A DNA stretch of 64,000 nucleotides. It comes from Botryllus schlosseri (lineage: Eukaryota). Positions 1,979 to 51,591 of this stretch are shown here, piece after piece. How positions within the stretch are numbered: the first letter of the stretch is position 1; the number at the start of each line of letters is the position of its first letter. The stretch spans positions 36,148,001 to 36,212,000 of the forward strand of contig CM119372.1 in NCBI GenBank assembly GCA_051294905.1. Direction: 5' to 3'. The translations under genes were made by a program, and so were the position numbers. The notes beneath the pieces are model-generated. The model saw nothing but the letters and a program-made list of their open reading frames with translations. It was not told the DNA's origin and searched no databases.

Positions 1979-2953
1979 TTACCCAACGGATTTTCGGGCT
2001 GTCACAACCTGGCTTTTTCCAATCGCATTCGTCTCTTGCGTTCCATGAGCCCCTGCTGATACAGATGTGGCTCGTTCCGAACTCAACATTCTATTCCTTG
2101 CGCTCCGGCTGCTGTGCCGCAACCGTTCCCACGGAACAAGCCGCGATTTCCAATCGCCCGAGATTAGATTGATGCAGATCAGATTGATGATCATATCCAA
2201 ATGAAATAGAACAAATCTAGTAGCGCTAGACATGTCCACAAACGATATCGCCATGGCCATATCTGATGCTATGCATAACACTGAAAGGATGGTGACTCTT
2301 TTCATTAGTGTAACGTATTTAGGATGGGTCTGGATGCTCGACGAGCGATTAAAATGTATGGCTTTTATTAACGGATAGACAGATAGAATCAGCAGCGGCA
2401 ACTGAATCGACAAAGGAAATAACATCAAGACGACAGCTAGCGGTATGTCTTGCACGCCCACAAACACCCAACATACCATTAGCAACACCATTGCCGCTTC
2501 GTAAATAATGAAGTATTTGCTGACGAATCTCATAATCATATTTGAAAGATGAGCCAAGAATTCTGTCTCATAAATAGTTTTCTGCCGTATCCATATAACC
2601 GCGTAAACCGTGAAGAACACAAATCCACCAACAAGGAAAGTCACGCTCATCAAGACATGTTCGACTTCCCAGATGGCATTGCATTCTTCTGGTATACTCG
2701 CCGATTCATTCGATACGTCCCAGGCGATGACGCAATTGTTGATGCCTACCAGGACCGCCATTTCCGTCGTCACGGTAGCAAAAAGTAACGTGCAGCTGAC
2801 CGTCATAAGAATATTTTGAATGAATCTGCTCTTGCACCCGCAATTGCGGCAGACATTTTTCCGAATCACGTAAATCCATTGAGCGCAACAGAGGTAAACC
2901 GAAACTGCGAACAGTACCGATTCACAACCGATGATAACATCTATATCGGCCAT
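1979..2953 (-). CDS. Orphan 7TM (GPCR-like) membrane protein, paralogue 1, single coding exon, 324 aa
   Basis: Uninterrupted ORF with seven hydrophobic segments (VIIGCESVLFAVSVYLCCAQWIYV; ILMTVSCTLLFATV; VLMSVTFLVGGFVFFTVYAVIW; FIIYEAAMVLLMVCWVFV; LAVVLMLFPLSIQLPLLILSVYPL; VTILSVLCIASDMAMAISF; FVLFHLDMIINLICINLI) and a Ser/Thr-rich C-tail. Motifs WIRQ..IY, LAHLSN, YPL, CIASD and DW..RL.P are shared with three other ORFs in the window. Confidence 0.88.
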   Translation of the reverse strand: MADIDVIIGCESVLFAVSVYLCCAQWIYVIRKNVCRNCGCKSRFIQNILMTVSCTLLFATVTTEMAVLVGINNCVIAWDVSNESASIPEECNAIWEVEHVLMSVTFLVGGFVFFTVYAVIWIRQKTIYETEFLAHLSNMIMRFVSKYFIIYEAAMVLLMVCWVFVGVQDIPLAVVLMLFPLSIQLPLLILSVYPLIKAIHFNRSSSIQTHPKYVTLMKRVTILSVLCIASDMAMAISFVDMSSATRFVLFHLDMIINLICINLISGDWKSRLVPWERLRHSSRSARNRMLSSERATSVSAGAHGTQETNAIGKSQVVTARKSVG

Positions 2954-3187
2954 ACGAGCCTGCTCGAATAAGTACTGTTAATAGGTGGAAAGTACTTCAG
3001 TACAAGATCTCTAAAATATAAGAAATACTTCTTATGCAATTACATACGGCAGTGTTGGGAATCAGCCGCTACCGCCGAGCCACAAGTCATCTTGAGTTAT
3101 TGCAAATTTTGACTCCAATCAAGTCAGTCGATTTTCGAAGATGACTCGAGTCAAGCTGAATTTTCAAATTGGGGGCATGGTTTAAAG

Positions 3188-4542
3188 CAGAGGTCTCAAA
3201 CACGCGGCCCGCGAGAGCATTTTGTGCGGCCCGCGACGGCATTTTGGAATTTCAAGTATTTAACCATATATTCAAGTGCCGCATATCTTTTTTAGATATA
3301 AGAACTTGAAGTTCACGCTAAAACTACTATAAAATCAATGAAATCTCAAGGAACGTCACTATCACGTCACTTTTAAAAGCTACCGTGCGGTAAAAGATCA
3401 GCTATTACATCACATTTCTAGGTCATGATGATAAAACAATACCAGTTGATGATTCGTGACCGAAAATTGTGTAAAATTGTGTAAAATTACTCGATTTCGG
3501 ATTGACTGGATGACTAAATAAAAATGACTTAAGTGCAGTCCGATCAAACGTTGAAATAAGAGAAGGACTTGCGACTCGGAACGGTGACTTGGTAATTCTA
3601 CGGACGCAACGATCTATGAAACTGTCATGGGGAGTAGTAATATATCAAAAGGTCATAGATTGCGTTGGGTGTGGTAAATAGCTATCTAATCAGGTCAGTA
3701 TGGCAACCATTGGTATTATGTGACCCCCCTGACGTATAGTTGATTACATGTTGGATGTTGTTTGTTCTCTTTATCCATGTTATTATCTGTGGCGAGTAAG
3801 GTATTAGTACGGTCTACAGCCGTAACACCAATGAATTCTGAGCCGATTGAACATTTCTATTCCAGGGGTTCTTAACCAAGACCCGTAGACACCATCGGGG
3901 TACGAAGCACCACTTAAGGGTGTACGAGATGCATTGTGGAATTAGGCTTAAATGCTGTGGAATATTTTCTTGGCCAATATATGCAACTTGATAGTAGTCT
4001 TCGCGCTACGCGCAATTTTATGTGAGTGGGCGATCTGATTTTAATATAGGTGCCATAAGCAATTGTGTTGAAAATGAACACGGGGCTACGAGAAATCTTA
4101 TTGGAAGCACAACGGGTACGATCGCTAAAAAGGTTAGGAAGCAATGGTATTACTATGGCTCAATAATTATTATATTTAAAATGTTATTGATATGTTACAA
4201 TAATAATCGAAGGCAAAATCGAACGCTGATTTAATTCGCCTTTGGCAATGGCAGTAACAATAGTCGATGCTTATCACGACGATATCAAAACCAGGATTAT
4301 AGGCTACACCGCTCAAATGCTCTGATATCAAATCAATCTTCAGTAGATTTCCTAATATTCTTCATAAAATTGTGACTCGTCAAAGGTTCACTAGTTGCAA
4401 TATTATAACCCGACAGTTTTATGATGTCCTGATGCATCCTCTCGCATGATGTTTATAACTCACTAATTAAAAAAATTATGCCCGCGGCGTCCTGAAACAC
4501 TAATAAATTGGCCCGCGAGCACATTTGAGTTTGATACCCCTG
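3188..4542. mobile_element. Non-autonomous hAT (Charlie/Buster-type) element
   Basis: TIRs cagaggtctcaaac / gtttgatacccctg, subterminal gcggcccgcg motifs, perfect 8-bp TSD gtttaaag. Confidence 0.85.
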
Positions 4543-4605
4543 GTTTAAAGTCATTGCATTTTTCCAGTATCGCTCAGACATACGTGGTACTGGTAAAGTA
4601 AGTAG

Positions 4606-5032
4606 CAGAGATGAGCATGGATTAGGATTAGGTTTTGAAAAAACAGGATTAGTGAAATTTTGTCGGATTTGGATTGGATTTGGATTAGACATTTTTTTCA
4701 GAACGGATTAGGATTTGGATTGGATTTACCTATTTTCTGGGAGATTGAGATGTCGTGTGGCGAATGGCGACAAACTTTATTCGGATCAGTTATTAATGTA
4801 TATATGGTTACTAAGTTATCTTGAATCAAGTGAATCGTTGATTGTGAAAGAAAATTTTCGAATCCCTCCATTGCATAAATTAGTATTTTTTCTGAATTTC
4901 CAGTAGGAATCGGATTAGGATTGGACATGGACTTGAATATGAATAAGTTATGGATTAGGATTTGGATTTGGATTTGAAGGTTCGGATTCGGATTGGATTA
5001 GGACATAGAAATTTCAAATCCGCTCATCTCTG
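4606..5032. mobile_element. hAT-type MITE with GGATT(A/T) subterminal repeats
   Basis: TIR cagagatgagc / gctcatctctg; TSD gtaagtag / gtaagtaa. Confidence 0.85.
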
Positions 5033-5749
5033 GTAAGTAACTGCGTAGCTTCAGTTTATAATTATCAGACAAATGGAGGATAGAATGAGAAACAGTATGA
5101 TACACTACCAGGACATGGTGGGAATGACTATAGCAGTCGACAAACAGCGTGAAGCCACAAAATAAACAAACTAGTCAGGCGTAATTATTGAATGACTGCT
5201 TGCTCGTACAGGTTACACCAGCGACAGCGTATCACCAACAATCTGACCTTATATAAAGTACAGCGATTTAGTCGCCACCGATTACTTGATGAATTGAAAT
5301 TGACTCGTGCCTTTTGTTCCTAGTTCTAATCATGCGATGATTTAAAAATAAACAGAATGAATCATGCAGCAGTGTAACAATAAATAGAATATATAAGGTA
5401 TATAATATTATCTCATCACCCTGCGACTGAAGCGCGAGCACGTCCGCTACACTTGACGAGTTCACATAGAATATGCATTGCAGACTGAATGGATGGGGAT
5501 TGAGGTTAGGTACAGGGGTGGGTGACACGATTATTGGCACTATTTGGGACAGTTACACAGGGACTTAACCAGGGACTAAAATTTTCGTGCTCACAGGAGG
5601 CTCAAATATCAACGTTCCTGCTGGGTATGGAATCAGACCCGAGCCAGACAGGTTTGATTCTGATTCCTGCCCAAGATGCACAAGGTGCCATGTCACCTCT
5701 ACCTGAAAGCTTTCACAAGAAAACAGCCCTTCCGTGGGCGTGTTTTTAT

Positions 5750-6248
5750 CAGGGTTGTAATGACTCGAGTCACGATTGTTTGGTGACTCGACTGGACTCG
5801 AGTCATATTTTTTTAAATGCGTAAACCGACTCGACTCGAGAAAATTTTGTATTGACTCGACTTGTACTCAAGTCCTTGTACATGACTCGAACAAGAGACT
5901 ATAGGACGGCCAAGACAGACATTTCCTTGTAACTTCGAAGAATAGTAAATCACCACATTAATGATATTTCATCTAACAGTCCTGATACTTCGTAAATAGG
6001 GCCAGAAACTGTTAGGACTGAGCTCTCGAGCACAGTGGAAAACAGGGGGTTGAACCAGATGGAAGTCAAAACTACACAGTGAACTGTGACTTGGACTCGA
6101 GTTACAATTCTATAACACGGACTCGACCCTCTACAGACTGACTCCGACTTGACTCGGTGGTGGATTGAAAACGACTCGAATTGACTCGAGTCAAAACAAT
6201 AAAAGTGAGACTTGTGACTCGGCAACTTGTGACCGAGTTACAACCCTG
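5750..6248. mobile_element. hAT-type MITE with GACTCGAG repeats
   Basis: TIR cagggttgtaa / ttacaaccctg; perfect 8-bp TSD gtttttat. Degenerate relatives at about 300-400, 3050-3160, 15800-15950 and 24006-24197. Confidence 0.88.
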
Positions 6249-6560
6249 GTTTTTATTCCAGTAAACGCGACCGTAATCCTCGGAGCGCCAAGCAGGCCTC
6301 TCACATCGAAAGAAATATATTTCTATTGTCAGCAAGCCGCGCTGATACGGCCATGAATGACATGGAAGGTCATGGCTACTGAATTATTCGAATTGGCGAC
6401 TGATTTCACAAAACCAAGCGCTGAAAAACTGGTCAGACCTTAACATGTTATATTTCAATATTTAGATCGGAAAATCCATGATTTATTTTCAACCACGCAT
6501 TCAAGCCTGTTGGAAAGCGCCACTGTGATGTCAGTGGTTCAATATCAGTAACTCGCGAAT

Positions 6561-6565
<5 letters not shown>

Positions 6566-6600
<35 letters not shown>

Positions 6601-6655
6601 TCTCCCTTTCTATCCATCTCCCTTTCTATCTCTCTTTTTTTCTTTCTTTCTCTCT
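6566..6655. repeat. (CT)n microsatellite / polypyrimidine tract
   Basis: Read directly from the sequence. Confidence 0.95.
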
Positions 6656-7231
6656 GATCGCCTATTACCCACGCAAGTTAGTCTTACTATGACGTAAAAC
6701 CTACTATGTGATACGTGTTGAGGTATGCATTTTTCGTTATTAAGCCATTATTTAGCCATATTTTCAGCGCGCCTCATTCATTTAATTTTATAGTATTCAA
6801 GATAGTGACATACGGTGATGGTTTTGATGGCAGAGGCGGATTACCGTAGAATCAGATTGGAGGTTATGCGAAGTCCAAAAGGTTAGCTGATTCAGTTGAC
6901 GACTTGTTTCTTGCCACATTAACATTCTTCACACGCAGGATACGTAATAAGATATAGCTACTACGCATCAACTATTATCGAAGCTATGGAAAATACATAA
7001 CAGCCACCTGAGTAAGACTATATAGGTATTTGCTCAGCACAGCACGTCGACCGTCTTCACTTCACAATTCATACTACTGTCGCGGCTTTTGAATTCGGTA
7101 AACGCGTTGTTGTACCGCGCTGCATCTCGGAGCAGATTATTATATTCCTCACCTTTTACTGCCTCACAGCGCTAGTACTGTACCTAACAACTTGTGTGAA
7201 ATCGCATGGAGTGCAGTGAGAATGAGTAGAC

Positions 7232-8420
7232 CAGGGGTGGGCAAACTTTTGAGCTCGCGGGCCGCATTCAACATATGAATCCATTCGCGGGCCGCACTAT
7301 ATGAAATTGGGATTATAGATCAAAACGCAATATTGGTGTTTGATTATATAGTGAGGACATGGAGATAATATATATGCTTATTTAAAACAATCCAAACATT
7401 GCTTTGATGATATCGTACACGCTACAGAAGCATTGGCGAGAATTTTATAGGCTGGTTGATCTGAATTACCAATTTGTCAAAACTATAGAGATGAAAGTCG
7501 GTTGTCCCGATTCTTAGAACTGGATTGAAATTTAAATGTGTGAGCAGCGATCTGTTCATAGATTTAATAATTCCACTTTTGGTTCAGTTTCAGGACACAC
7601 AATGCTGACAGCATCATAACCATGTTAGATTCAAACACGCTTCTACTATGTGTAGATAAAATATTAATAACCCAATTCTACGCATACAGAGAACGAATGT
7701 ACCTTAGACACGAGCGAATCGTTTTTTATAAGCACAATACTGAAATAATTAAAACTGGAGTGGCAAGTCAGAAATCACACTCGTGATCCGAATTATGTCA
7801 ATCACGTTTAGGATTTTTGTGACGTATAGCAGTTGGAACCTTTCAAACTGCGTGGGCCTGGAAATCGGGCTGCCGCGCCAGAAATTGAACATAAAAAATA
7901 GTATAAGTAATTACCTTTGAGCGGTGGTTCTCAAAATTTTTAAAACACGACCCCCCCCCACTTATGATGGTAAAAGATTTGCCCCTACCCCCACCCCCTT
8001 ATCCTCATATCACAAAACGCAACCAGGATGCTAGCAAACCTAACGGACAGTTTGATGGCATGGAAGGTTATGACTGTGGATGAGAGATTTTTCAATATGA
8101 AATTCAGACTAAATACAGAGCATTCATTATGAACCGGATGTAAATCGCGCGGAGCGATATTCAGTTGAGCTCAGCTTCTTGCCCCCTTTCCGATGCTTTC
8201 ATGCCTCCAAAGGGGTGCGCCTCCCAATTTGAGAACCAATGCCTTGCAATTATCATGCAGAAATACACTAAGAAAAAGTTTAATCAAGTCTCTGCATTAA
8301 TTCACGTTTTAGTACGCATATTATCAATATTTTTAATAAGTTTCTTTAGACTCTCGCGGGCCGCACAGAACGGTGTGGAGGGCCGCATGCGGCCCGTGGG
8401 CCGTAGTTTGCCCACCCCTG
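7232..8420. mobile_element. Charlie/Buster-type hAT element containing a nested MITE (about 7922-8241)
   Basis: TIR caggggtgggcaaact / agtttgcccacccctg; perfect TSD gagtagac. The nested MITE has a relative at about 63351-63656. Confidence 0.88.
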
Positions 8421-9864
8421 GAGTAGACTATATCAAAATCGAGACATAGGCATCTGTTGGAAGTAGAGCATCGGGATACGCTTATGCAAAGTCAAGCCCG
8501 GCACTAAAAGAGCTCCGACTTCTGGCACAACCCACATTCATTCTAAGTTTTTGTTTGAAACCTTCCTCACTTGTTAGCTTTCAAGTAAATTATTGTATAA
8601 TCGACACCTTCTTTTTTTCATAAATTCTAAAAGGATACCTGGCGCAGCATTAGACTTGGTTGGACGTGATCACATATTTTGCTATACCGGTGACCATAAC
8701 TAATACAAAATAAGTCAAATGACATACACTGATCATAATATGTAACTTATATTGTCATGAAAGCAGGTAGAGATCAGTTAGTTAATAGATAATCAAAAAC
8801 TTCCTGAAGTTTTAAGGATTTAGTATCACCAATACACTTCAAGCACCATCTCTTTGCTGACAAGTAGGCCTACGACAGTTGATGCTGCTGTGGCATTTTT
8901 TGTGAACCAATTAGAATTCCATATGGTAGCGCGCGTAAAGTGGCATTAGCGCTGCGCTTCATCACGGAGGAAATAGCCTATTGAATGTGTACGATGTGTG
9001 CGTAGCAAAAATTACTATGACTCCATGCAATCATCACCACCATTCGCAAGTATATCATACTAATTAAAAGAATGACCGTTTAGACCAGCAACCGATACGG
9101 CGCTACCTGTTTTATATTGATTCAAATATTCTCATTAATTTCCGACAGTTCTCGATTTACCGGATACCCGTAAGTGGTCGTACGAAGAGAGACTGACTGA
9201 ATATTGGCATTGCGTCAGAATTGAGACCGTCCGCAAGTTAAGAAAACTAATACTACATACCAGGGGTTACCAATCTGTCTGTTACCCTCACCTCCCTTAG
9301 GGGCCATCAACCCTTTACAGGGCGCCATGATTAAATTATCACCTGTAAGTCTGCTCCACTGTAAGTAATGGCATTGATTATTATGTACTAATAATGCTAG
9401 TACGGTTATACAACACTGGTTGATGTTCAGTTTATTTCCATGTTTCACCTTTCGATATTTTAGAGTTTGGGCAACAAGGAATTTAGACGAAAGTTATCTT
9501 AAGCCTGGCGTTACATGAGTGTGAAGGTCTATAATTGTGTTCTATGTTCAACAGTTCCGACTAATGGGTCGATGGGAACAGGAAATCTGACCGCGGTGCA
9601 CAGTAGTTAGGAAATCCAAATCCAGCTAGACAGAAATGGTAATTTAAATCCGTTTTCTATTACAATCATGTACTTCGGGTTAGGAACTAAGATATAGAGA
9701 ACATGCACGAAATAAAAAATATGCAAATTTTCCCATTAGCTGTGAATACCGAAACAATGAAAATATTTCGATTATTGCCTTTGCCAACCGATTCCATAAC
9801 CGGATTTTCTATGTGGCGATGATATACAGAATACAGATATGATATAACCATAGTGTCCTACAAT

Positions 9865-11585
9865 CAGACATTGGGTGATTACTTCATGAATGTAATCGAT
9901 TGCGATTACGATTACTTCTGAATCACGCGATTATGATTACAGCAAAATCCGCAAGTAGTCGATTACGATTACTTTACAAAAGTAATCACGATTACTCACG
10001 ACTACATTTATTTATTTTTCTTCTTCGAAGTTTTCTTTGGAAGACAACAATGCGATGAAAAGGCCTCATGACGTCATGACGTCATTTCCTGTATATGACA
10101 TAACATACCATTGCATGATTTACAGAAATATGCATTTCGGTGTCGGCTAATACCGCGCCGCGAGCCCGCGAGAAACCAAGACATGCTACCTTGACCGAAA
10201 CATTCTGTATTTTTCCATTGTCCATAGCCGCGCTGGCTGTTCGCGACGAATAGTCTTCTCAATGTCAGCCCCACAATACAAATTCCACCCGGGGCACCCA
10301 CTGAGGGAAATGATGAACCCCGTGCAGAAATTACAATTTCTGGGTGCGTCTCACGAAAGTTTTTCGTTTACTTTTGTTATCGTCTGCAACGTTTCGGCGA
10401 CTCCAATATTTTTCGACTATGTAAAAGACAGGAGGTCACGAAATAACAACATGAAATAAAGTTATAGTTGTAAATTACGTGCCTAAATATTCGCGCTTGG
10501 CGCGACTTGACAGCAAATTCACAGCCAATCCATATCGCATCAAATCGTGTTTCCGGTTCTTGTGAAAAGCCCGGTCGTTGAAGGGGGGTCTGGGGGACTT
10601 CGCCCGACAGAATTTCTATTAATCGCCTTATGGGGTGGGAGGGGGTGGGCAAGACAACCATTCGTGAGAAGAGGGTGGCGAAATGCTGTTTCGGTACTGA
10701 TTCTAGCTGCAATCCACGCTAACATGGTGTGTACCGGATGGCTATAGTGGCAGATCCAAATGTTGAGTATAAAATTGCGAAATAGAAATTGTTGCCCGTT
10801 TCAACAAGGGCCTTATGAGAATACGATGAGGTAAACATAAACTTCTGCCTACAATCCACTTGATACGCAGATATTCTGAGCTGCTATTATACGAGTAAAT
10901 GAACATATCGGCTCGGTTATGATTTTTTATCAGCAGCCGTTGGATTATGATGCTTCGATGTAGAATTTGTCATGTTTTATTTGACGAGTACAAAATGACA
11001 CATCTTTGTCCAGTGTATACGTAAATAGGCCTACCGCTTGCCAATCAGCAACGATCAAACTGCGTTTACCTCAGCATAACAACACATCAATACATAGTAC
11101 ATACGTTACTATTCGAAACTAGGCATAGAGTGGTGATTATTATCCTGTTGCGAGGTAGTGGCGTCTGCAGTGTATTAATAACCTGACATAATGCAGAGCG
11201 GGTGTTCTTACAATCACAGTACTACATGTACAATTGTACATCGGAAATCTATTTACTACGTTCGGATAATTCGTTACGCAAAGAGCCAAGCTAATATTTG
11301 TGACGCAATAATGAGCAGAGGCGTTTGAAAATCCGACTTTTGTGCTATCCAAAACCTGTTTTAAATCGCACTCTTCATTGTTCACGAATGATCAGTTTAT
11401 GACATGGGCATTGCACAAATGAAAAGTAATCGTTCTTTCACAAAGAAATCGGTTATATATGTGAAGTAGTCGATTACGATTACTTCGGATTTTTTTTAAT
11501 GCAATCGATTGCGAACACGATTACTTGGAAATGCTGTAATCGTCGTAATCGATTACGGTTACTAAATACTCTAATTGCACGGCTG
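9865..11585. mobile_element. hAT-like element with GATTAC subterminal repeats, inserted just inside a CATAG-terminated MITE
   Basis: gattac arrays at both ends; degenerate TSD cctacaat / ctttcaat. The flanks (9849-9864 plus 11594 onward) rejoin into the sequence seen uninterrupted from 53150. Confidence 0.65.
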
Positions 11586-14459
11586 CTTTCAATAGTGTGG
11601 ACACCAGCAATGTCACGGCTCACTGCGATTGGTTTACGTCACACTTTCCATTTGGCTAAAGGCAATTAGACGGTAATTTTTGATCGGCTTGCCGGGCGCA
11701 AAATTTGTTAAAATTGGTATCAATTAAAAAGCTACTAAAGTACTGATTAAGATAATATAAATTTTATTATTTTATTCTGCCTGTGGTCCTGGTACCCCTC
11801 AAAATCAGTGTTTCCTTTTGCACAATGGTATTACATATGTAATTTCGCAAATTAATTGGTGAGAACTATAACGATCTAAAAAATTAATAAACTTTGGCAC
11901 CCTACTATTTGCGATAAATAGTTGTTTTCCGTGGTAAATGGCATTGATCAATGGATAGATGGATATGATCAGGATTAGTAACTGTGAATGGTATAAGCCA
12001 GGGTTCTCAACCGATGTTTGACTGGGGCCAATTTTCCGGTTTGAAAATACTCTGAAGCCCCACCTCTTATCCTATAGCCATTGGCCTTTGTACCGGGAAA
12101 TGCTTATTTCGTTAAAATATGTACGATTTTATCTCAGTAATCATATTTAAATCTGGAGCTCCAGCGACATGAAATTGCGCCAAACGCGAGAAAGTTTTTA
12201 AGTTGAATTAATCTTCTACAACGAACGACCAATGAAATAATTTCCGTACCCGTCGTGCTCCCGGATTGGGGGTTTGGGTGCGGCAGTTACTGCCCTAGTA
12301 TATATCATATAACTCCTGTGTACATTATGGCTCTGCGCTGTACAACCCTCGTCGCGAAACGAAATGATCTATTCCCGCATCCTCTCAGTGATTAGGGGTT
12401 TAGCTTAACTATGGTGGGTAATAATAAAACCATTCTGTGCCAGCTTCAAACAATTTTTGGTGAATCGGATACTACAGAAGAGTGGGAAAATTATTTTCTA
12501 GTATGCAAGCTGTCCAATGTACGCATATTGATGTTGCGATATCAGAACATTCAATCCAATGATACAATCAATTCATGTGTCACTTACATCAAGTACAGTG
12601 ATTACAACACGGACATATTGAACCAACACCAAACAAATAATGTTCTGTGCTATCCTTAATCCATACGATTCGTTGCCGTATACTTCCAGAGGAAGTTGAA
12701 AGTAATTGATAACAAATTTCTGTTATGGCTATTTCTATGTTGCAATAGTACGACCAGCCGAAGAACCGTACATCTACCTCAAATACACTTCAGTCCAAGT
12801 TTAATACACACCCCTTTTTAACGGCATACGACACATGAGCTTTGTAGCTTAGGTATAATTAGAAAATTTGTAAATATTTTGAGCGAATGAAATAGCAAAC
12901 ATTACTGAAATTTCACTAATTGTAAAATTTTCCAAATAGCTCTGTGGCCTACTTCAAAATACTACTGTTGAGAGTCTCCGGTCTAAGCCCTGAGGAAATG
13001 AAAAATATTACTGTCGTCAGTAAGGACAATGTTATAGAGTAAAGTTGGTCAACCTGTGGCCGCATAGAAGCATAAATATGCGACGGTGTACAAGTAGCCT
13101 AATTCAATTAGCGTGTGCGGGCGGTCGTCAATGTGCAATTTGAATTTACGAATTATAAGCTGCCAAATGAATTAAAACTTTTCATTTTTTATCAAAAAAA
13201 TTCTTTGCGCTTTGCGCGATTCAGGGAGTCATGAATTTTCGATTTAGATATAGTAGGGTTTTAGCATTCTGACCCCCGTACATATGAGAACCGTAGAGGA
13301 AAATAAGAAGACTCATAAAAATATACCAATTTGTAATCCCATTCCTCTCACAGAAGTTTTTTCTTGTACTTTCGCCCATTCCGATATATTTTGAGTATAG
13401 GCTACAGACAATCCTAATGGGAGGTCGAGGAATAACAATACGTAACAAAGGAACCAATGCTTGGCCTACCCAAAGATTCGTCATCAATTCATCAATAATT
13501 ATGAGCCCTAAATTGTCGAAAACACCCCTTTCATCAGCTCTACCGGTAAATCTGATGACACGGGCGGAGAAAGGATAAATATTTGATAGTAACATGTGCA
13601 TTGTGCAACCACCAATATTATTAATGAAATTCATTCATGAGAAAGTTAGTCTTTTCGCCCCATGCGCGACTTGTCAGCGATTCTCAATATCTCTTAATAG
13701 CATTAATAATTGCGATGTCGGTGGGTACGGAAAGCCTGCCTGGGCGTTCTAATTCTACAATTAAAAACGTTCGTTCGCGACATATTACACACGGAAAGAT
13801 TAATAACTCAGAACACAGCAATGGCTGTCCCTCCTATATCCAATTTAACATGGCTATTTCCTGTCTATAGTTGGTCCATTACGAATATTCATAGGAATGC
13901 GGCCGTACGCCATACATGTAATCGAAATACGGCGATGAATAGCAAAACGGTTGAACACCGCTGTCATAGAGTATATGTATGTAGCCCACAATTAGTCAAG
14001 ATATGATTTTATTTTGATAGTTTTGTGATGATCGAATGTGCATATAGAACGTTTAAAATGAATAATTCGCATCGCAAGAGCCTATACCGTAGAGGTGTTC
14101 ATACTGGAACCTCCCAGTCCGCGACGTTGAAATAATCAACTTTTATAACGAAATGCAGTGATTTTGAAAATAAATATTCTAATCGTAAACATCTGTTCCA
14201 ACAGGTCCTCCAAAAAGTGCAAAGAGGAATTATAAAGTTACAGAAATCGGGCACTGAATATTGCTATTACATGGTTCTATTCGTCGGCACACCGCGCATA
14301 TTATAGAAGCCTGGGATTCCGGCAAAATAATTAGTAATCACTTATATTTGAGTCTCATATCTCCTTAACGTTTCGCAACATGACAGTGCGTTATTACAGA
14401 TGCCGTCTGTAATCCAACATTCGTATCTTCATCATCATCCACGTACATTGTTTCGACGA

Positions 14460-15386
14460 TTAGGCTACCTGTCGATCACGGCGACATAAAATGACACATG
14501 GAAATAGCCTCAATATCCAATCGTTTGGGATTAAATTGACGCAAATCAGATTGATGATCATGTTCAAATGAAACCAGGATAATTTTAGGTTCAGATCCAT
14601 ATCACTAAAAAACCAAAACAACATAGCCATAACGGTGTCTGATGCTAAGCACATTGCTGTCAGAATAGTAACTCTTTGTCTCAATCGAACATATCTTCGA
14701 TCAGTAGAGATGTTTGATATGCGATTATAATATGTAGCCTTAATCAAAGGGTAGATGAACAGAATCAATATCGGGATCTGAATTGACCAAGTTGTCGGCA
14801 TGATCACCACCGTCAAAAATCCGGTAAACCGATTGAAGTAGCCGTAAAGCAGGAAACCTACTAGAAAAATCGCGACCGCTGCCATGAACACTGGAAAGTT
14901 TTTACTAAGGAACCTTGTAACCTTATTCGACAAATGAGCTAAGAACGATTTGCAGTAGATAGCTCTCTGCCTCTGCCATATTACACCATATATGATAAAC
15001 AGCGCAATCATGCAAATAGTCACAAGAATAGAAACTGTTGGAAGCAGGAATTTAGTGTCGTGCGACAAGGTATTCTGTTCTCTCGGGATAGATGATCCGA
15101 CATCAGACCCATTATATGTTGTTGAGTTCGGTGCTGCGAAAGACTTTTCCGCCATGATGACTTGTTGATAAGTTGTCTGCCACTTTTTAAGATATATCGC
15201 CAAGACGATTCCTGCAACCGTCGAAATAGCAATCAACGTGCTGCTGACCGCGAGGAGGATGCTCTGGATTTGATTTCTTGAAATATTACAGCTGCAGCAC
15301 ACATGATCATGAAAGCAATAATTCCATTGAACCAAACATATGTAGATGGAGATTCCGCACAGTATAATATCGAGTCCAATAAACAT
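14460..15386 (-). CDS. Orphan 7TM (GPCR-like) membrane protein, paralogue 2, 308 aa
   Basis: Same motif set (WQRQRAIY, FLAHLSN, IQIPILILFIYPL, CLASD, NLIPNDWILRLFP). Long ECL1 with N-glycosylation sequons (NST, NGS). Confidence 0.88.
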   Translation of the reverse strand: MFIGLDIILCGISIYICLVQWNYCFHDHVCCSCNISRNQIQSILLAVSSTLIAISTVAGIVLAIYLKKWQTTYQQVIMAEKSFAAPNSTTYNGSDVGSSIPREQNTLSHDTKFLLPTVSILVTICMIALFIIYGVIWQRQRAIYCKSFLAHLSNKVTRFLSKNFPVFMAAVAIFLVGFLLYGYFNRFTGFLTVVIMPTTWSIQIPILILFIYPLIKATYYNRISNISTDRRYVRLRQRVTILTAMCLASDTVMAMLFWFFSDMDLNLKLSWFHLNMIINLICVNLIPNDWILRLFPCVILCRRDRQVA

Positions 15387-16229
15387 ATTGGCTCTAAAAT
15401 TATTTAATTTCAGTGGTCGAATACCGTACTGAAATTGATAATTACATTCAAGATATTATAGTTATTCCTAATGTCTATATGTTGAAGTATATATTTGATC
15501 ACTCACGATGCAACAAGTAACAACCGCTGTAATAGACACATTATTAAGCGTCCGACCGCCGGGGCGGATGGATGCCAAACAGGCGGTTATAACACGAGAT
15601 TTCCCTACAACAACCGCCATGCGGGGAAGTAAAGAGCACGGCTGCTACATAAACGGCCAATGAATACGTAAATCTGGAATTTCAAACTGAATTGTGTTCG
15701 TAGGCCAGATTCAAATATCTTTTTGCTTGATGTCCGAACAAGTCATATCCTCACCAAATGCTACCTCCGAATCTGTACTCTATTTTTCAGTAGGAAGAGG
15801 TGAGTTGAACTTGAACTGCACTCGGGACTGAACGGGGAACACTATGGCTCGTACCCTTTCACCCTGACTTGGACTCGGACTTGAGTCGGTGATCAATCGA
15901 AAAGGCGATTTTCTGGTGACTCGAAACCTAGTGACTTGATTTCCCACCCTGGATTTTGAATTAACGATTTGGCATAATTTTACTAGTCCGGTTCATGTGC
16001 AAGCGATCACGAGAATTGAATGCGACCAGCGACCCAAATCGATATTCGCACTACTAGCTTAAAATATGCGAAACCTCGGCCATATCTACTTCTTCAAACT
16101 ACTTACTTGAGTAGCCTACTTTTCAAACCATTGATTTTTTGCTGCTACTTATAATCTAATGTTTACTTTTACTTTTTAAAGATAATTGTGGCAACAACGC
16201 ATAGTTGGGTGCTAACTAAATATTTCATC

Positions 16230-17905
16230 TTTGTAAAATAACTTGAACGATTCCAGTTAGCTAGCAGTCACTAAAATTCGAGAACACAGCAACGCATTCG
16301 AGGAACCACAGCTGGTGCTGTCAACTTTGCCTGACGCAATTATTGTATATCAAGTAGGGTGGAGCATGGACCGGAGCCGGATTGGATATCCGACCGGATT
16401 TTCTCATTTTTCGCCGGAGTCAGTTCGGAGCCGGATCAATGCTTTTTCTAATACGGCCGGAGTTGGATCGGAGCCAGTTCAGTACTTCCTACTAAAAATA
16501 TGACAGCATTACTCTGTTCCACCCTCGAATCAATAGTTAAAGTGAAACGTTCACAGCAGTAAACCACATGCTAAGTCCAAGTTGACATAATTAGGCTACT
16601 TCAGATAAGGGTTGGGTGTGATATTTGAGTTTTTAATTTCCTGTTTGCAATTTTGCAATCAATATTCGATGACATCCGGAGAGTAGATAATTATTATCGG
16701 ATTTTTTTCGGACCGGAACACAGTCATTTCTAGAATCCAACCTAGGGGTCTGACCAAAGTCGACCAAAGGTTTTAAAAACAGGATCTTAGTAGGACTAGA
16801 TAATTTATCGACCCGCTCCGCCCTAATATCAAGGTCTCGCTGCAACAGTAGTCAGCTACGGCTATTCTGGCCTAGGTCAGCTACAGGATTCCTACTGAAG
16901 AGCTTGCGATTTATATATAAGCTCCTCCTCGACATGTGCTCAGCGTATATGATGGTGTCTGAAAAAAGTCCAGAAGAATTTGGGACGTGATAAAAGCCGG
17001 CAACTCAGACATCACAATGACGGATGCCTGTGTAAAATGGCAATCGAAATCGTAGAAACACTATGAAAACCAAAATACAGCAATATTAAGTCATATGTAG
17101 ATATAACACGTGACGTGCTCCGATACAAACAGATCATCACCATTTTATTACTATTTTTATAAAATCAATCCACCACAAGATTGCGATAAAAAGAAGAAAT
17201 AGGGTGCCGAAACGACTTCCCGAAGAGACTTTTTAATCAGAAACTCACCTTGGCCTACAGCATTTAAATAAGAGGCGTACACATTGGATTTAGGAAAGAA
17301 TAACATAAATGGAAGCGACAAAACTGAATGCTGCATGTGTCAGTGTGCGCGGTCGATATGTGATATTGTGGTCCCGTTATGTTGAAGGCTGACTAGTAAT
17401 GTACGTGAAGCAAATGCGGATGCTATTAGTTATTTCACTTATTCACTTAATTAACTGGACCTTTCTATCAATTTTGGGATGCTTCAACGCTAGTAAACAA
17501 CGGCATTACCTCACTCCTGACATGATTATTAGTATTTATCGCTGATGTTGCAACTATTGTGAAGTATATCGCCTTGCATACGAAGAAGCATTGATTTCGT
17601 GATAGAAGCGCTGCGTTCCATAACAGAGAAATCGATCCATTATCCCGAATATGAGCAGAGCACAATATTGGTGTCACGGACATCGGAAATATGACTCGAC
17701 CATAATAAGAGAGGAAATGAGCATGCTGATAAATAATGCATAGCCACCAAGCAGATCGCTATCTGGTTGAAACCATTATAGTATGACTGTCGGAGTCGTT
17801 TCGACATTGCAAGAAACTGGGATGCAATCGATTAGAAATATTGCCTCAACCGACGACACTATGTAACACAGGTATGGCTGTAAACAATGATTCGAGTCCA
17901 ATATT
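16230..17905 (-). pseudogene. Probable highly decayed 7TM paralogue, interrupted by a MITE at 16355-16825
   Basis: Minus strand from 17902 reads IGLESLFTAIPVLHSVVG* versus paralogue 1 IGCESVLFAVSVYLCCAQW, with the TGA exactly at the conserved Trp. Further on, ALFISMLISSLIMVE (TM2-like) and TIIY..RSLYINR at about 16960-16906 (cf. IYPL.KA.YxNR). Multiple stops and frameshifts; boundaries approximate. Confidence 0.45.
16355..16825. mobile_element. hAT-type MITE with CCGG repeats
   Basis: TIR tagggtggagc / gctccgcccta; perfect 8-bp TSD atatcaag. Confidence 0.85.
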
Positions 17906-18118
17906 GAGAGACAGTAGCCTTCTTCCTCCTACTACCGAAATGATACGTCCCTTTCTAGTAATAGTTATATGATCATGATCAACAATATTATACTGTCGAT
18001 GTTTATTTCACAACTTAGGAGCCCTTGAACCGTTATTGCTGGTATCACAGATTCCAAAACACGAGAAGATAAGCACTTCAAAAATATTTGTATCAGACAC
18101 ATACCGTAACCGTGAAAG

Positions 18119-23382: not shown

Positions 23383-23524
23383 TCGCATCATCCTTGTTAA
23401 ACATCGTTTGATTCTGAATTACACATCACGATATTTTCGCTACCGCAGCTAAGCCATTGGATGAATAGTAAGCGGAATCATGTCCTAAACATATACAACC
23501 ATAGGCCTTGAATGCGACTACGCA
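23383..23524 (+). pseudogene. 5' fragment of a paralogue-3-like receptor gene (leader plus about 23 codons), dead
   Basis: Aligns with about 25166-25311 (e.g. cacgatattttcgc, aagcggaat, gtcctaaacat, atgcgact). The ATG is replaced by TTG at 23457 and followed by TAG TAA. Confidence 0.75.
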
Positions 23525-30777: not shown

Positions 30778-31219
30778 GAGGAGACGACATGGACAAAGCG
30801 ATAACAAAAACAAAAAACGTTGGCAAATTCATGCACGTAGATGGGCTCGCACATCGTCAGGTCGTCCAATAGCGATGGTATACGCTATTTGTAGGGATTA
30901 CGTAGGACGCGCGCACCTGCATAAGCTTAGAATTCGTTACAAACGGCAATAAATAAATTTTACTTCGTTACGAAAATTAATAGCTTACTACATTTTGAGA
31001 GCCACATTTCCTTGAGCATACATTTTAGCCATAATCTCCGGCATATTAACTTAATTTTTAAATTGAAAGCCGTGAATTGCAGCTAAGTGGATGTGTTGAT
31101 ATTAGGCAATGAGAAGATGACGGTAAATGAGCAAAAATATTATCTATTTGCAGACATAATATGAAACAATGTTAAACGCGCGTGATACATTGTTAAATCT
31201 CTTTAAACCCCTATATACG

Positions 31220-39974: not shown

Positions 39975-40127
39975 GTTCACATATTGTTGGGGACTGCCTA
40001 ATTGCGTCGAGCAAGTGCGACGGTGACGACATCGAGCCATGTAACGGGTTAAGAAATGCCGCGCAGCCGCGACAGCTGAAGCGTGAAGGTCCTGTGGAAA
40101 TTTCAATAAATTGCAGCTCCATTACGG

Positions 40128-41465: not shown

Positions 41466-43618
41466 CATTACGGTGGCGTTCTGAAGAAAATGGCTGCGGC
41501 GTTTTGCTTTCAATTTGACACCACATCATTTTTAGAGTGCAATGCCCCTTTAAGGATTGCACTGTGTGTTCATTGATCAGAGAGAAGCAGACATAGCGGC
41601 GCCTATATGACAATGCTGTTCTCAAATCCACATTGTCATCGTCATTATTGGCGAGAAACGGCTATGAAGTGACATTGCTGTCGATAAAATACATTCATTA
41701 ATTACTATTTATTCCTTGTATATGTGGAAAAATGGGCGAATAATGTATCGATTTAGCAATCCGGCACGCCAAGTACATAATTTTCCTATATCCGGCTAGC
41801 CGACTGAAGAAGTTGCCCGCTCCTGCTATATGCGTATGTCTTTGGGTAAATCTCATACCTCTGAAACCACCCCAAGGATATATTTAGTGCAATTTCGTCG
41901 TGCTAGGGAATCTTACTTATTTGCAATCTCGCCTACGTCCCATTATGAATTCACCTGACAGGTGCACTAATCTGGTTCCACGCAAACGAAAGTTATTGAA
42001 TAAATAAATACATGCTGGCTGTAATGAGATTGCAACGCCGGTCAAAGCCGTTATGGCGGCAGGTATATGTGTGTCCAAGCTGTTTTCTCTGCTCTCATGC
42101 TGCTGCATGAAACCATATGGAAGCGTATGTGGAAATGAAATCCAGTATAGATAAAGGAATGTTTCAAAGTTAGAATACGGAGTTAATGAAGCGTTCTATT
42201 TACATATTGTTCGGGCACGGTCTTGCTTGGCAGAGGTAGTTGGACTTCATGCTCACAAGCAATTACGTCATAGATAACAGTGAAATGCAGCTAACACATC
42301 ATTAGTACTTTGTTAAGCAAATCAAAGAAAATAGAACCATACTAGAAGTAGTTTATTGCATGTTTTTAAATTTCTCCGTTACATTTTTACGCAATATTTG
42401 TTGAAAGTTGCGGTAATAATTGGCCTGAAAAATAGAGAAAAGCTGCAAAAAGTTGCACTATAAAATCACTCCAAACAGCTTAAAACATCATAGTACATAC
42501 ATTCTGAGTATCTAGGAAGCTTTCGGAAGCTGTAAAAAACGTGCCCTAGTCATAACCCTAGTGCAGGGGTCACCAACCTGGTTCCCGCGGGCACAAAGTA
42601 GCATGCGAGGACCAGATGAGTGGCCCGCGAGCCTTCTCTAAATATAGATTGAATAGCAGCATTTGCCAATATTCGTCAGATTATCACCAGTTAGCTTTAA
42701 ATATATAAATTGAGTGATTTAGCTATTCTTGTTTAAATTAAATTATAACATGTGACTTAGAAATGACAATACATATATATAAACACCTAAAATTATGATA
42801 TAAAATATCCCCAATTAAAATTAGTAATATACCAACATGTAATAGAATAACAAGAGATCGAAGACGTAGAATACGGCGTAGGCTACTGCCCATACATGCG
42901 ATATTATGGTTTGCCATCCACTTTCTTCTTAAAATAGTGGGGGGCTCAGTTATAGTAGCCTGACGTCCCGGACAATGCCGAAGTAGTAAACAACATTACT
43001 ATCCGGTAGCACATAGCGGTGACGTAGCCTATTAGCAGATGCAGTATGCCCATTACGTATTGTATCTTTTGACACAGCTTGTCTTTCTTACACTCAACGC
43101 AGCTTATAGTAGGCTACCATGTTTTTAACTTTCTGTAATCGATGCTGCTGTCAGGTATAATGAAATCTGTCATGTCTGGATGCTGAACGGTCCGAGATTG
43201 AAATTGTACCACTGCAAAATCACTTCCACCCCAAAGCCCACAAGGCTGCAGCAAACTTTTGGTGCCTTGTTGACGCGGAAAAGTACAGTGGTGAATGCGC
43301 ATTGCGCACTTGCGCAGCAGCGATGAAGGTTGCAAGCATGTTTGGTTCAACTTATCGTTGTGTAGCAGCCTTTGCGGACACGACATTGATCAAAAAACAA
43401 ACACAGAAAACGCCTCACTAATGCACATTGCACTTCTGCAACACTCACTCAGAGTTGCAGTGTAAGTTACATACCAGAGTACAGCGCACTAGTTGATAGC
43501 ATTCAATGCCAGGCCTCTCACTGACTGGTATAGCAACAGATAACACGATGTCCAGTCTAACGTATGACGTGATTTATTTTAAAATCTGAGCTTACAGTTG
43601 TTTTATAATAATTTATTT

Positions 43619-44048
43619 GAAGAGCTTCTTGGAGGTACAGAACTTCAATATACAATTGAATAGTATATTCATATTTTAATGAACCCGAATATTTTCGGCT
43701 GACACTCGTCAGGGGTAATCGTCAGCAACTAGTGGAGAAATGGAAAGAACATTGTATATCAACAATCGTATCACAAAATATGACGTCACCTGCATGAAAT
43801 TTCGTGAATGGGAGAGCGTTCAATGTACTATTTTTAGGTGGTACACGAACTCCTTTTGTTGACATAGTTTTGGTTGGTGTATTTTGATAAAAGTCGACTC
43901 CAAGGCACACAAATGGAATAGTGAACGGCCTCGCCCAACGATTCGAAATCGGTCGTCTCGATAATTATTCGCACAAATCGGATTATCTAACAGATGTTTG
44001 CCGATGGCAGAATTGATGGCCTTTGATCGATCAGCTTCAATCTTAAGT
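43619..44048 (-). mobile_element. Solo 3' fragment / pseudo-LTR of the same Penelope family
   Basis: Reverse complement matches the GIY-YIG C-terminus and 3' UTR, and ends at the same ...ccaagaagctcttc terminus as 62076. Confidence 0.92.
43681..43726 (-). ncRNA. Hammerhead ribozyme motif, third copy
   Basis: Identical to 60031-60076, although the neighbouring coding part of this copy has many substitutions. Confidence 0.78.
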
Positions 44049-47000: not shown

Positions 47001-48469
47001 ACATTGGATTCAAGCATCCGTGGCATATGTGCGCTTATCTAGAACCACTCAAACGATATATATTGAGCAAACGAATACATGCTGGCTGTAATGAGATTAT
47101 AATGCCAATCAAATCCATTACGACGGCAGGTATTGATATGTCCCAGCTGTTTTATCTGCCCTCTCGCTTCCGATGAAATCCTAACCACATAGGTATGGAA
47201 ATAAAAATCCAATCCAGTAGATACCCGTTCCTATCGATCTCGTGGTATCATCTATCATAGTAAGACTAAGAGGTTCGGAATGCTATGCGAGGTGGAAAAC
47301 TTCAAAATTTTCTTGATAAAATGTTTCCCTGTGACGAGTCATTGCGCATATACGTCGAGTCCGATTCAAGTGAAGTCTATTTAGAGTATAATGATTCGAG
47401 TAGAGCAAGTCATTCAAAAGACCTGAGTCTATTAAAGTCTTGAACAGTGAACATGGCTACAGAATGACTTACGTCAGATCATCGTATCTGAAACAATACC
47501 CCCATGGATATGAAGTTTATTGGGGTGGTTCGAAGTATATCGATTAGGTTTGGTGCATAATGTGATAAGTTGGATTTGGTAGATGATCGGCTTTTTTGCT
47601 GTTGGACCTGGTATTGTCTGGTTACATAACGAGTTGGTAAAGTTTAGGAATATGCAATTGGTAACAGGTTTTCACACGAGGAAATGACTATGGAAACTTT
47701 GACCCGTCGATGTAGAGCGCTTATGAACAACCGAATCACCAGGATCCGGGATGTCCAACCTGCGGCCTGCAGAGCAAACATTTGCGGCCCGTGTAGAGGT
47801 GCTAATCTTGAAAGGTGTGCAGTGCACAAAGTGCGTTTCTATTAGCTTGTAGACTAGTAGGCATACGTTTTAGCTAAGCTCAGGGGAGCTCAGAGGCGGA
47901 AACAGGCTAACATTAATAACATATGCTAATGATGTCATGTGCATGAATATTTTTACACAATCTATTCGACGATTCGCGTGATTTACCTATTCAACTCCGG
48001 CTATTAAAATTAATATTCACGGATGTAGTCCGATCTCGAACAATGCGTATAGATCTAGCTCTAAATTCGACGTTTATCTACGTAAATGCGAATTTATACT
48101 CTGGATCCCAGTGGAGGCATGTACTGACGAACCCATGAAACAGCATCCCTTTAGACCAGCCATTCCCGAACTCTTGGCCCTGCCCCACCCCCACCCCCAA
48201 GGTAAGATCCATAGTTTGACTGAACTATGTAATATAAAAAGGAAATTAGTTAAAAGTTATTGATAATACTAGCAGAGCCATAAGTTACTTATTGAACTTT
48301 ACTTTACTTACTTTGTTTTACTTTTAAATTTATTATCAATAATATTTAAAGACTTCGCAATGGTGGCCCTGCCGAAAAAGAGAAGTACGATAAAAGTTAT
48401 ATTATGCTTGGCTTGGCTTGACAAAGGAGTGTGCAAGTCACAATGTGTTTCATTTTCAAATAGGCAAAG

Positions 48470-48600
48470 CGTACCCTATGAGCGTAATGAAATTGGCATT
48501 CGATTGCTGTTGCGTTTCTCATCAACATATCGTTGTGAATACGGGTTTTCAACAATGATACTTCTGAAGACAAAGCAGCGAAATCTATTGGATATAAAAT
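48470..48600 (+). mobile_element. Charlie/Buster hAT transposase C-terminal remnant
   Basis: LLLRFSSTYRCEYGFSTM..LKTKQRNLL matches the F-x-S/T-T-Y-x-C-E-x-G-F-S...K-T-K-x-R-N block. Confidence 0.75.
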
Positions 48601-50667
48601 TTAATGAAAATAACGTGGTGCTAGGGGTTTAATAAATAAAGCGTCATTGACGTTTCAAAATCTTCAAAGGGATCCACGTTATAACAAAGGTTTGGAGCCT
48701 CTCATTAGACAGCCCCAGCTTCACAATAAGTAGTTGAAAGTAAAAATCCAACATATAGTTATCGATGAATTGACCTTCACAATTCTGGATTCAACTTATT
48801 ACTCGATCATGACGTAACGTTCACACAATGGATGCCTTCCTCGCTTATACGGCAGCGCGAAAAGCACACTCTCCGGTTCAATCCGATATAGGCTCTCGGT
48901 GAACCAGGCTTGATAAGCATTGCTTGATATTCTTCGGGCGTATGTGTAAACCAGGGGCCGTGAAATTTGTTTGTAGAGGGAGCCATGATGGCCCTATATT
49001 TTCAATTGCCTTCCCCATAGAATCATGAACCAATTTGACGTTTGGCGTCTGTGACGTCACAATTGAAGATCTATGGCAACATCGTCATACCAAATCAAAA
49101 TTCACTACCGTCATTTCGAGTCACTGCAAATCTAAACACCAATCAAGTCAAGTCATTTAAAGATATGTCGAGTCGAGTCATGATCTGACCATTGTAATCA
49201 GATACTTATGGTGAGGTGAATTTCCAGTAAAATTTATAAAATTAAATTACGGAGAATAGTATTAACAGAATGCCTTTTTCAAATTTATTTAGTCTCCAGA
49301 TGCGAAATGGCTGCCAGAACCATTCCCGTAATATGACATAATTAGACGTAGATACCATGGGTAGTAAAACAACAACCACTTCAATATTGATTAGGTGCAA
49401 CTTATATGGTTGTGGCATCGGAGATATCTGTCTGAATTTTCAAATCATTGTTACCGCTATCACGTAGCAATTTCAAATACATATTAGAACTACTTCAAGT
49501 AGAACTAATAAATGAAAGGCCCGAAAGTACTCGGGTATGTAATAGTTTTTACAAGTAGATCAAGTGACATATACTTTTAGTGATAAATCGGAGGTGTGCT
49601 TGTATCGAAATTACAACATGTGTGTGATCAACGACTACAAATAAAGCAATTTCGGAAATATATACCAATACTGTGTGATACAGGGTTATTTTGCCCGTTT
49701 TTTATGGTGGTTTCATTGCCAAATTGTTCACAAAAGTTTAAGAAGCACCATGTTTTGATGTCAATAACTGTTGAATAGAAGTGAAAGTAGTCTGAAAATG
49801 AAACCACTTTAGAAAGTATTAGAATAGACTTGATTGAGCATACAGAAAAAAATATATAATACTTCATTATTGACCCGCTGTGGATACTGGGTGTGCACAC
49901 AGTTGCCTTATGATAAAATCAATGGCTGCATACGGCATAAAATCATTACACTGGTCTTTTATTAATGGATCAGCTGGAGCTGTGTGCGAATGGATGGGGA
50001 CGCTTTCCCCACGTCACTTATCCCGCCACAATTCTACTTCGTACTCTATACGTTGCTGATATGTTGCTGAATTGGCTTTGGATGATTTGTTTTCGCATAC
50101 GTAAAATATTATGAAAAAGCGATAGCGTTGTGTTGCTTCGCAGCGACGAATATTATTTGTCATAGTCAAAGTCATTATTTCAGGGAAGTTCAATTTTTGG
50201 TTAAAAGGGTCGCATGCGGTGTACGAATCATTTCGCGGGCAAATTTAAGTGTTGATGACCTCGATTACCAGCGGCTTGTTATAAATTTGGCCTTAACCCC
50301 GGCTATATGGTAAAAGACAATGGCAGAAAAATACTAATTTTTTTCTTGGAACGCAAGTTCACCACAAGCAACGTTGGCGATTGCTTTGATAATGAAGAGT
50401 AATTTCGAAAATGACTAACCGATCACTCGAAATCACTCATTGCTCGAGTGATGGCGGCGTTTGCATTAGTCTACCCAAACTTTGTTTTGATGTCTTTTAC
50501 AGATTACGGATAATGTTTCAATGGGCAGGGCACAGCGCATTATCTGGAGTTCCCTTTCCATACTCGATTTGCGATTGAATTTCTGCTGTGTATGGTTTTA
50601 CATTTATCGGCTCAATTTTCAGAAGTTTAATATCGTGTGATTGCAATTCACTTCCACAGTTAAACTA

Positions 50668-51591
50668 ATGGATTGTAGTGGACATTCCATTCGGCCGAAG
50701 TCGATAGACCTCACTAAATATACAAACAACGTCATCATATGCGACTGTGTATTGCTTGTAATCGCCGTCTACCTCTGTTCTGTTCACTGGATATATATTC
50801 ATTACATGCACAACTGCCAGGAATGTTGTGCGATATCGCGAAAGCTCACACAAAGTATTCTCCTGGCAGTCAGCTGCTCATTAATTGTTGCCTCGCTTAT
50901 CATGGATATTAATGTCATGGTAGATTGGAAAAAGCACCTCGCAGCGAAATCCGGTCACGGGACCTCTGTACAGTACTGCCCGAATATTGAACTGCTCTTA
51001 ATTGGCATGTTTGTTGTTTTTGCAACCGTACCAGTTTTGTTACACATCGTCACGTGGATGAGGCAGAGAGTATTCTATCGGAATTTGTTATTGTCTCATC
51101 TGTCAAACGGGATTTCAAGTTTCATAAGCAAATATTTTCTAATTCACGTTGTAGTGGTCCTCATTGTGGCTTTATCGCTATCGCTCATTCCCTACTGCGG
51201 AATTGTGTCGCTCATGCTACCTCCCTGGGCGATCCAGTGTCCGCTGTTGATTCTAGCCATCTATCCCTTGAGTAAAGCAGTTTATTTCAACCGGGCATCT
51301 AACTTACGAACCGATCGCACATACGTTCAACTTGCAAAAAGAATCACCCTCGCAACTTCGACATGCTTGGCGTCAGATACAGCTGTGGCGATATATATGT
51401 ACCGGTATTTCTCGCAGGAGTTATGGCCGCTCTTTTTCAACTTTAACCTGCTCCAAAATCTGATTTGTGTGAACTTGATCTCGAGCGATTGGAAACGCAG
51501 GTTGGTGCCTTGGGTACGCTCGTCACAAACATTCCAACGGAGAAGGGAAAGAATATCGTGTGTGGTGCGTGATTTTCGACCCCACCAGTGA
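50668..51591 (+). CDS. Orphan 7TM (GPCR-like) membrane protein, paralogue 4, 307 aa from the first ATG (MDCSGHS...)
   Basis: The ORF track starts at a TTG (50641). The first ATG is at 50668 and matches the MD start of paralogue 3. Motifs WMRQRVFY, LSHLSN, IQCPLLILAIYPL, CLASD, NLISSDWKRRLVP. Confidence 0.88.
   Translation: MDCSGHSIRPKSIDLTKYTNNVIICDCVLLVIAVYLCSVHWIYIHYMHNCQECCAISRKLTQSILLAVSCSLIVASLIMDINVMVDWKKHLAAKSGHGTSVQYCPNIELLLIGMFVVFATVPVLLHIVTWMRQRVFYRNLLLSHLSNGISSFISKYFLIHVVVVLIVALSLSLIPYCGIVSLMLPPWAIQCPLLILAIYPLSKAVYFNRASNLRTDRTYVQLAKRITLATSTCLASDTAVAIYMYRYFSQELWPLFFNFNLLQNLICVNLISSDWKRRLVPWVRSSQTFQRRRERISCVVRDFRPHQ

Follow-up and report, generated by a model that had tools for sequence, protein, structure and literature searches.

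The window analysed here is a 64,000-nucleotide stretch of the Botryllus schlosseri genome (assembly GCA_051294905.1, contig CM119372.1, positions 36,148,001 to 36,212,000, forward strand) that carries four intact open reading frames (ORFs), termed genes A–D (Table 1), each predicted to encode a small seven-transmembrane (7TM) protein. The four are almost certainly members of the tunicate orphan 7TM family exemplified by Ciona KH.C3.516, and we propose, with a probability of roughly 0.45, that they have a chemosensory role as G-protein-coupled detectors of external chemicals. All four start with ATG and are paralogues, with pairwise identities of 36–58% (E 1e-45 or better). Each aligns with its relatives over the whole 7TM core, which is therefore contained in a single exon; the original prediction of four intact single-coding-exon paralogues of 307–341 amino acids thus holds. 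In A, B and D the ATG is preceded, at a distance of 7–60 nt, by T-rich stretches ending in AG, and these three genes may therefore have a 5′ intron. A simple hydropathy prediction picked seven segments in A, B and C and five in D, and D aligns with C from end to end; in the structural model of gene A, a short C-terminal helix comes after seven long ones. The five signature motifs first quoted for these proteins (WxRQxxxY, LxHLSN, IQxP...YPL, CxxSD and NLIxxDWxxRLxP) are present in the alignment of all four.

The genes are spaced 10–25 kb apart, two per strand with B and C back to back, in a setting of repeats and retroelement fragments; 28% of the window is self-repeated, and none of 14 other long frames that were scanned gave a match to a host-gene family. 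The locus had been described as a tandem array, which is apt in that four related genes lie within 50 kb but is a loose term for genes so far apart and on both strands.

Table 1. Features of the 64,000-nucleotide window (positions counted from its first letter).
Feature	Position	Strand	Description
Gene A	1979–2953	−	Intact 7TM ORF of 324 amino acids; model pLDDT (predicted local distance difference test) 88.5, pTM (predicted template-modelling score) 0.84; 80% identity with P0001
Gene B	14460–15386	−	Intact 7TM ORF of 308 amino acids; long first extracellular loop (ECL1) with two sequons; 77% identity with P0005
Gene C	25246–26271	+	Intact 7TM ORF of 341 amino acids; 58% amino acid and 74% nucleotide identity with D
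Gene D	50668–51591	+	Intact 7TM ORF of 307 amino acids; 68% identity with P0004
Dead 5′ fragment of a C-like gene	23383–23524	+	76% over 147 nt to the 5′ flank and first 22 codons of C; E 7e-24
Probable decayed copy	11850–12250 (limits approximate)	−	Best piece is the motif of transmembrane helix 5 (TM5), 11904–11984; tblastn E 0.002
Copy of the 3′ flank of C (26464–26834)	42164–42544	+	72% over 395 nt
Penelope-like retroelement	60168–61877		
Its reverse transcriptase ORF	60693–61703	−	RVT_1 E 3.8e-9
Its weak GIY-YIG frame	60168–60692	−	E 0.023; follows the reverse transcriptase ORF
Inverted copy of its end	59999–60370 and 62046–61675		97% identity
Further copy of its end	43619–44048		
Reverse transcriptase fragment like that of a long interspersed nuclear element (LINE)	59733–60032	+	RVT_1 E 5e-8
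LINE-like reverse transcriptase fragment	62051–62761	+	RVT_1 E 0.003
Short frame	48273–48632	+	Presumed likeness, by motif, to the C-terminal end of hAT transposases; no supporting Pfam match
Repeat pair	29896–30779 and 56126–57018		900 nt, 79% identity; unclassified

A profile built from A–D and three close matches recovered, at the 50% identity level, 445 protein clusters with E values of 0.001 or better, and 174 and 25 clusters at the stricter cut-offs of 1e-10 and 1e-30 respectively. Among 30 matches that were looked up six were named, all of them ascidian (five ‘uncharacterized’ proteins of Styela clava and one of Clavelina lepadiformis), and groups of 4, 4 and 2 among 21 matches come from contigs of equal length, as clusters would. 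These numbers and the four genes in 50 kb support an expanded and clustered family. No Pfam family reached its cut-off for A–D or for 110 relatives. Sub-cut-off Pfam matches in the relatives (Srd, Sre, Yip1, MBOAT and MatE; among the 25 listed of 108 families) involved one or two members each and were rejected as hydrophobic noise. ‘Serpentine receptor class gamma’, the label given in the Atlas, was also set aside, being assigned automatically and lacking a common Pfam family. In the ESM Atlas a 101-member 7TM cluster from Mucoromycota resembles the family (features 0.93; predicted structure TM 0.66), and a distant link of the family to fungal 7TM proteins is possible.

The window genes are connected with the KH.C3.516 family through Clavelina protein P0078 and KH.C5.48. 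The window profile matched P0078 with E 4e-16 (hhalign probability 97.8), and P0078, compared by eye with the supplement of PMC7397655, is nearly identical to KH.C5.48 along long stretches. The same comparison by eye found WxRQ in 11 of the 12 Ciona proteins of that supplement, with WxRL in the twelfth, and TM5, TM6 and TM7 patterns in common with the present alignment. What is shared comprises WxRQ, the TM5 Q...YP, the TM6 CxxxD, the TM7 N...DW/Y..RLxP, their spacings, protein size, tandem arrangement and taxon.

Johnson, Razy-Krajka and Stolfi (2020; PMC7397655) described KH.C3.516, an orphan 7TM protein flanked by tandem neighbours, and assigned it to a family expanded specifically in tunicates, which they proposed to comprise tunicate-specific chemosensory receptors. 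The identifier KH.C3.516 occurred in three records of the literature searched, and six other identifiers of the family in none. The proposal is taken up in a 2020 review, according to which function has yet to be established (PMC7776563), and in a 2024 paper KH.C3.516 serves solely as a marker (PMC10962819); no functional test of the proposal was found in the literature searched, which lay outside subscription journals and bioRxiv supplements. Kamesh et al. (2008; PMC2396169) list 23 ‘other rhodopsins’ in Ciona, any of which might belong to the family. The original prediction had put these genes forward as a candidate lineage-specific chemoreceptor family; both family and chemoreceptor hypothesis were already published in 2020, and A–D add new members to it, on a derived branch. 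The candidacy of these genes as chemoreceptors is upheld.

For the analysis of topology and conserved positions, the four window proteins were aligned with 149 of 168 fetched relatives (n = 153; 17 were dropped on length and two as near-duplicates). Predicted models of gene A and of P0100 (pLDDT 88.5 and 89.2) both have seven helices, as the proposed 7TM architecture demands, and with both models G-protein-coupled receptors (GPCRs) made up all of the best 50 Foldseek matches, in agreement with a GPCR-like fold. The 15 matches of a Styela member at E 0.001 or better were all class A receptors, and the model of the ancestral-type member has a beta-hairpin carrying a cysteine in the second extracellular loop (ECL2). 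Insect olfactory and gustatory receptor (OR/GR) channels were absent from the best 50 matches of every fold search. Searched by sequence, the PDB gave no match to a 7-sequence profile; matches of a 148-sequence profile to MFSD2A and rhodopsin were weak and out of register, and were discarded.

Lysine and arginine residues average 5.7, 2.6 and 4.1 in the inner loops (those after TM1, TM3 and TM5), whereas the outer loops average 0.7, 1.2 and 0.65, and 67% of the 153 proteins have an N-terminal glycosylation sequon. Together, these features argue strongly for an N-terminus that is outside the cell, as in GPCRs and unlike the insect OR/GR 7TM ion channels with their inverted, N-in topology; such an inversion had been named as an observation that would speak against the receptor interpretation, and the predicted orientation is the opposite one.

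Outside the window's branch, a cysteine lies exactly 25 residues N-terminal to the arginine of WxRQ in 114 of 122 members, and 116 of the 122 have the pair of cysteines in TM3 and ECL2. Arginine or lysine occupies the WxRQ arginine site in 151/152 proteins; an asparagine stands 11 residues before the conserved helix-8 aromatic residue (W) in 129/152, with asparagine or aspartate four residues earlier in 126, and lysine or arginine follows the W in 133/152. These spacings match C3.25–R3.50 and N7.45–N7.49–F8.50 of class A receptors, so that we take the WxRQ arginine, R123 in gene A, to be R3.50. Two of the substitutions first proposed must then be reworded: WxRQ was said to stand in place of DRY, although its arginine falls by spacing at the class A position, and NLI in place of NPxxY, although the equivalent asparagine is found one turn before it. 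From the class A spacings we infer a highly derived rhodopsin-class origin in which the G-protein-contacting arginine has been kept.

The family shares with class A (7tm_1) its fold, the outside N-terminus, the above spacings and, in the ancestral type, the cysteine-bearing ECL2 hairpin. It differs in that DRY, CWxP and NPxxY are each found in 0/153 proteins, with just the arginine and asparagine remaining in register, and in having no TM6 or TM7 proline; 7tm_1 reached its cut-off in none of the four window proteins, and the best of 110 relatives scored 22.2 bits against a cut-off of 30.5. Given the absence of these motifs, formal membership of class A fails, though the proteins probably work likewise. 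A different reading is that the proteins have a GPCR fold but act independently of G-proteins, as lysosomal or Golgi 7TM proteins, channels or scaffolds of an old eukaryotic lineage (compare GPR137, TMEM87 and fungal PTH11-like proteins). We consider this improbable, given that the cysteine-to-arginine and asparagine-to-aromatic spacings are exactly those of class A, that one of the 110 relatives does match 7tm_1 weakly (E 1.1e-4, below cut-off), that UniRef labels P0078 as a family 1 GPCR profile protein, and that housekeeping 7TM proteins do not usually show large expansions in which the outer face varies. In all seven helices the inner half is better conserved than the outer half, the pattern expected where many ligands act through one transducer, and coupling of the family to G-proteins is likely.

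Genes A–D and five further proteins form a clade on a long stem (support 0.998; a quick IQ-TREE run with 42 rows gave 100 in the Shimodaira–Hasegawa-like approximate likelihood ratio test, SH-aLRT), nested within a 31-member group that has lost the TM3 cysteine throughout. The TM3–ECL2 cysteine pair is found in 0/9 members of the window clade and 0/22 sister rows, and 16 of these 22 have two cysteines inside ECL2. Further departures of the nine-member clade from the KH.C3.516 family are a TM4–TM5 span of 39 residues, versus 56 in the family, with an ECL2 that is much shorter; a TM5 proline (9/9 versus 0/122); a first inner loop rich in cysteine (mean 2.7 versus 0.4 elsewhere); and a shorter N-terminus. 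The window's branch is therefore a structural variant within the family, and loss of the disulfide and of the ECL2 hairpin should result in a more open pocket. The cysteines and histidines of the first inner loop (residues 33–43 in A) form a clade-specific cluster, conceivably a site of palmitoylation or a metal site.

Vertebrate chemoreceptors offer several points of comparison. The bitter taste receptors TAS2R (class T) and the V1R/ORA receptors resemble the family in length (about 300 amino acids), intronless coding region, clustering and short N-terminus; the best structural match of gene A is also among them, a lead that disappears with the ancestral-type member, and two family members are expressed in one Ciona cell type, as TAS2Rs are. 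On a further reading, which we regard as highly unlikely, the family would be the tunicate sister group of TAS2R/V1R, with bitter-type chemoreception predating the tunicate–vertebrate split. No TAS2R or V1R profile match was obtained for the four window proteins (E 10) or the 110 relatives (E 0.01). With vertebrate olfactory receptors the family has gene organisation in common (single coding exon, clusters and remnants) but no profile match, and olfactory receptor genes are reported to be absent in tunicates (PMC2817399).

Of the six pairs among A–D, C–D is the sole unsaturated one, with a synonymous divergence (dS) of 0.54 and a ratio of nonsynonymous to synonymous divergence (dN/dS) of 0.50 (bootstrap 0.37–0.67); dS is 1.1–2.2 in the remaining five. 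The proposed dN/dS test, for which C–D is the only usable pair, detected no positive selection and no region above 1 (loop estimates rest on 22–35 synonymous sites), and selection on the cluster, judged from this pair, appears purifying but relaxed. The counterparts of A, B and D (Table 1) are possibly orthologues in related species, or else paralogues. High dS in five of six pairs and the closeness of these counterparts point to slow turnover at this locus. Two remnants and nested expansions of the family are in keeping with the birth and death that had been envisaged. Its supposed rapidity is borne out only in part: the duplications are old, the local pace is slow and selection is purifying.

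One clear and one probable dead copy had been predicted, and both are real yet just small fragments. The clear one, at 23383, has lost its start codon and contains in-frame stops, and no similarity was detected beyond the copied 5′ flank and first 22 codons. The other is probably a decayed copy: its TM5 motif scored 9.3 bits, whereas none of 13 null windows exceeded 7.0, and 12183–12248 has a weak 61% DNA match to the second intracellular loop (ICL2) of B. No coding remnant was found beside the copy of the 3′ flank of C, which may be a low-copy repeat or else what is left of another duplication. Profile matches in the masked window at 9033–9089, 34869–34994 and 49721–49798 had scores inside the null range and were rejected as further dead copies. 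Among the mobile elements in Table 1, the Penelope-like element seems to be inserted into a LINE-like element whose fragments flank it.

Read depth was available for positions 500–17500, which include both A and B. Run X9 (presumed RNA) has contigs that are exact matches to parts of A, of B and of the 3′ flanks of both, at a depth of 2.4–4.8 (at gene B, 14052–14314, 14363–14778 and 15091–15310), and 8438–9571 had zero X9 depth. In three RNA runs, of which 3–6% of each was read, depth was 0.4 or less in bins lying mainly within ORFs A and B, and none of the joints listed fell inside either ORF. This depth fits low or sparse transcription of A and B.

In Ciona, KH.C3.516 is specific to the axial columnar cells of the larval papilla, where a fusion with green fluorescent protein (GFP) is enriched at the exposed tip, alongside Plcb and Itpr; KH.C8.90, another member, likewise shows enrichment there (PMC7397655), and these cells respond to chemicals (bioRxiv 10.1101/2023.07.03.547492). 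KH.L141.50, also of the family, marks a different larval cluster, cluster 3 (37% versus 1.4% of cells; supplementary file 3 of PMC7397655), and family members may be spread across several cell types. The premise that ascidians are without vertebrate-type olfactory receptors agrees with the literature (PMC2817399), orthologues of OR, V1R and V2R being reported as absent from ascidians (PMC7776563, PMC2817399).

We propose that A–D are an old local cluster of highly derived rhodopsin-class-like receptors with the N-terminus outside. Their conserved cytoplasmic face (the TM3-end arginine, ICL2, the TM5 end, TM7 and helix 8) would engage one shared transducer, while the divergent outer half would give each paralogue a different ligand; external chemicals would be detected in epithelial sensory cells through phospholipase C, inositol trisphosphate and Ca2+, as suggested for the Ciona cells. 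That the ligands are external is put forward tentatively, at a little under even odds. The same family and G-protein mechanism might instead serve internal or microbial ligands (peptides, lipids or chemoattractants) in blood cells or epithelia, with a part in immunity, in paracrine control or in telling self from non-self. FPR, MRGPR and chemokine-type receptors, too, are marked by intronless GPCR expansions in clusters; the cysteine-bearing ECL2 hairpin of the ancestral type is a typical trait of class A receptors for peptides and lipids; and counterparts that are 68–80% identical fit retained functions. A neurotransmitter ligand was, furthermore, named as an alternative by Johnson et al. (PMC7397655). 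Enrichment of KH.C3.516::GFP at the externally exposed tip (PMC7397655) argues the other way, as do the window clade's lack of the disulfide and of the hairpin length and the low depth over A and B in the 3–6% of each of the three RNA runs that was read, and on balance we find internal or microbial ligands rather unlikely.

Tunicates sense chemicals yet are without the vertebrate smell-receptor families, and the KH.C3.516 family is a published candidate to fill this role. To this the present analysis adds an estimate of family size, a structural assignment, a register of mutable residues (R3.50 and N7.49) and a natural variant devoid of the disulfide. A broader possibility, which we hold with distinctly less than even confidence, is that the family is the main tunicate chemoreceptor repertoire. 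It would have arisen independently from a rhodopsin-class ancestor and would comprise dozens of genes in each species that Pfam does not see, and the window's branch would have converged further on the build of vertebrate bitter receptors (no disulfide, collapsed ECL2, very short N-terminus and straight helices). If true, chordates would have in it a chemoreceptor family distinct from OR, TAAR, V1R, V2R, T1R and T2R. The receptor for the settlement cue taurine was still listed as unknown in a 2026 paper (PMC12922724), and the role of the KH.C3.516 family bears on the origin of vertebrate smell and taste, on larval settlement and on biofouling.

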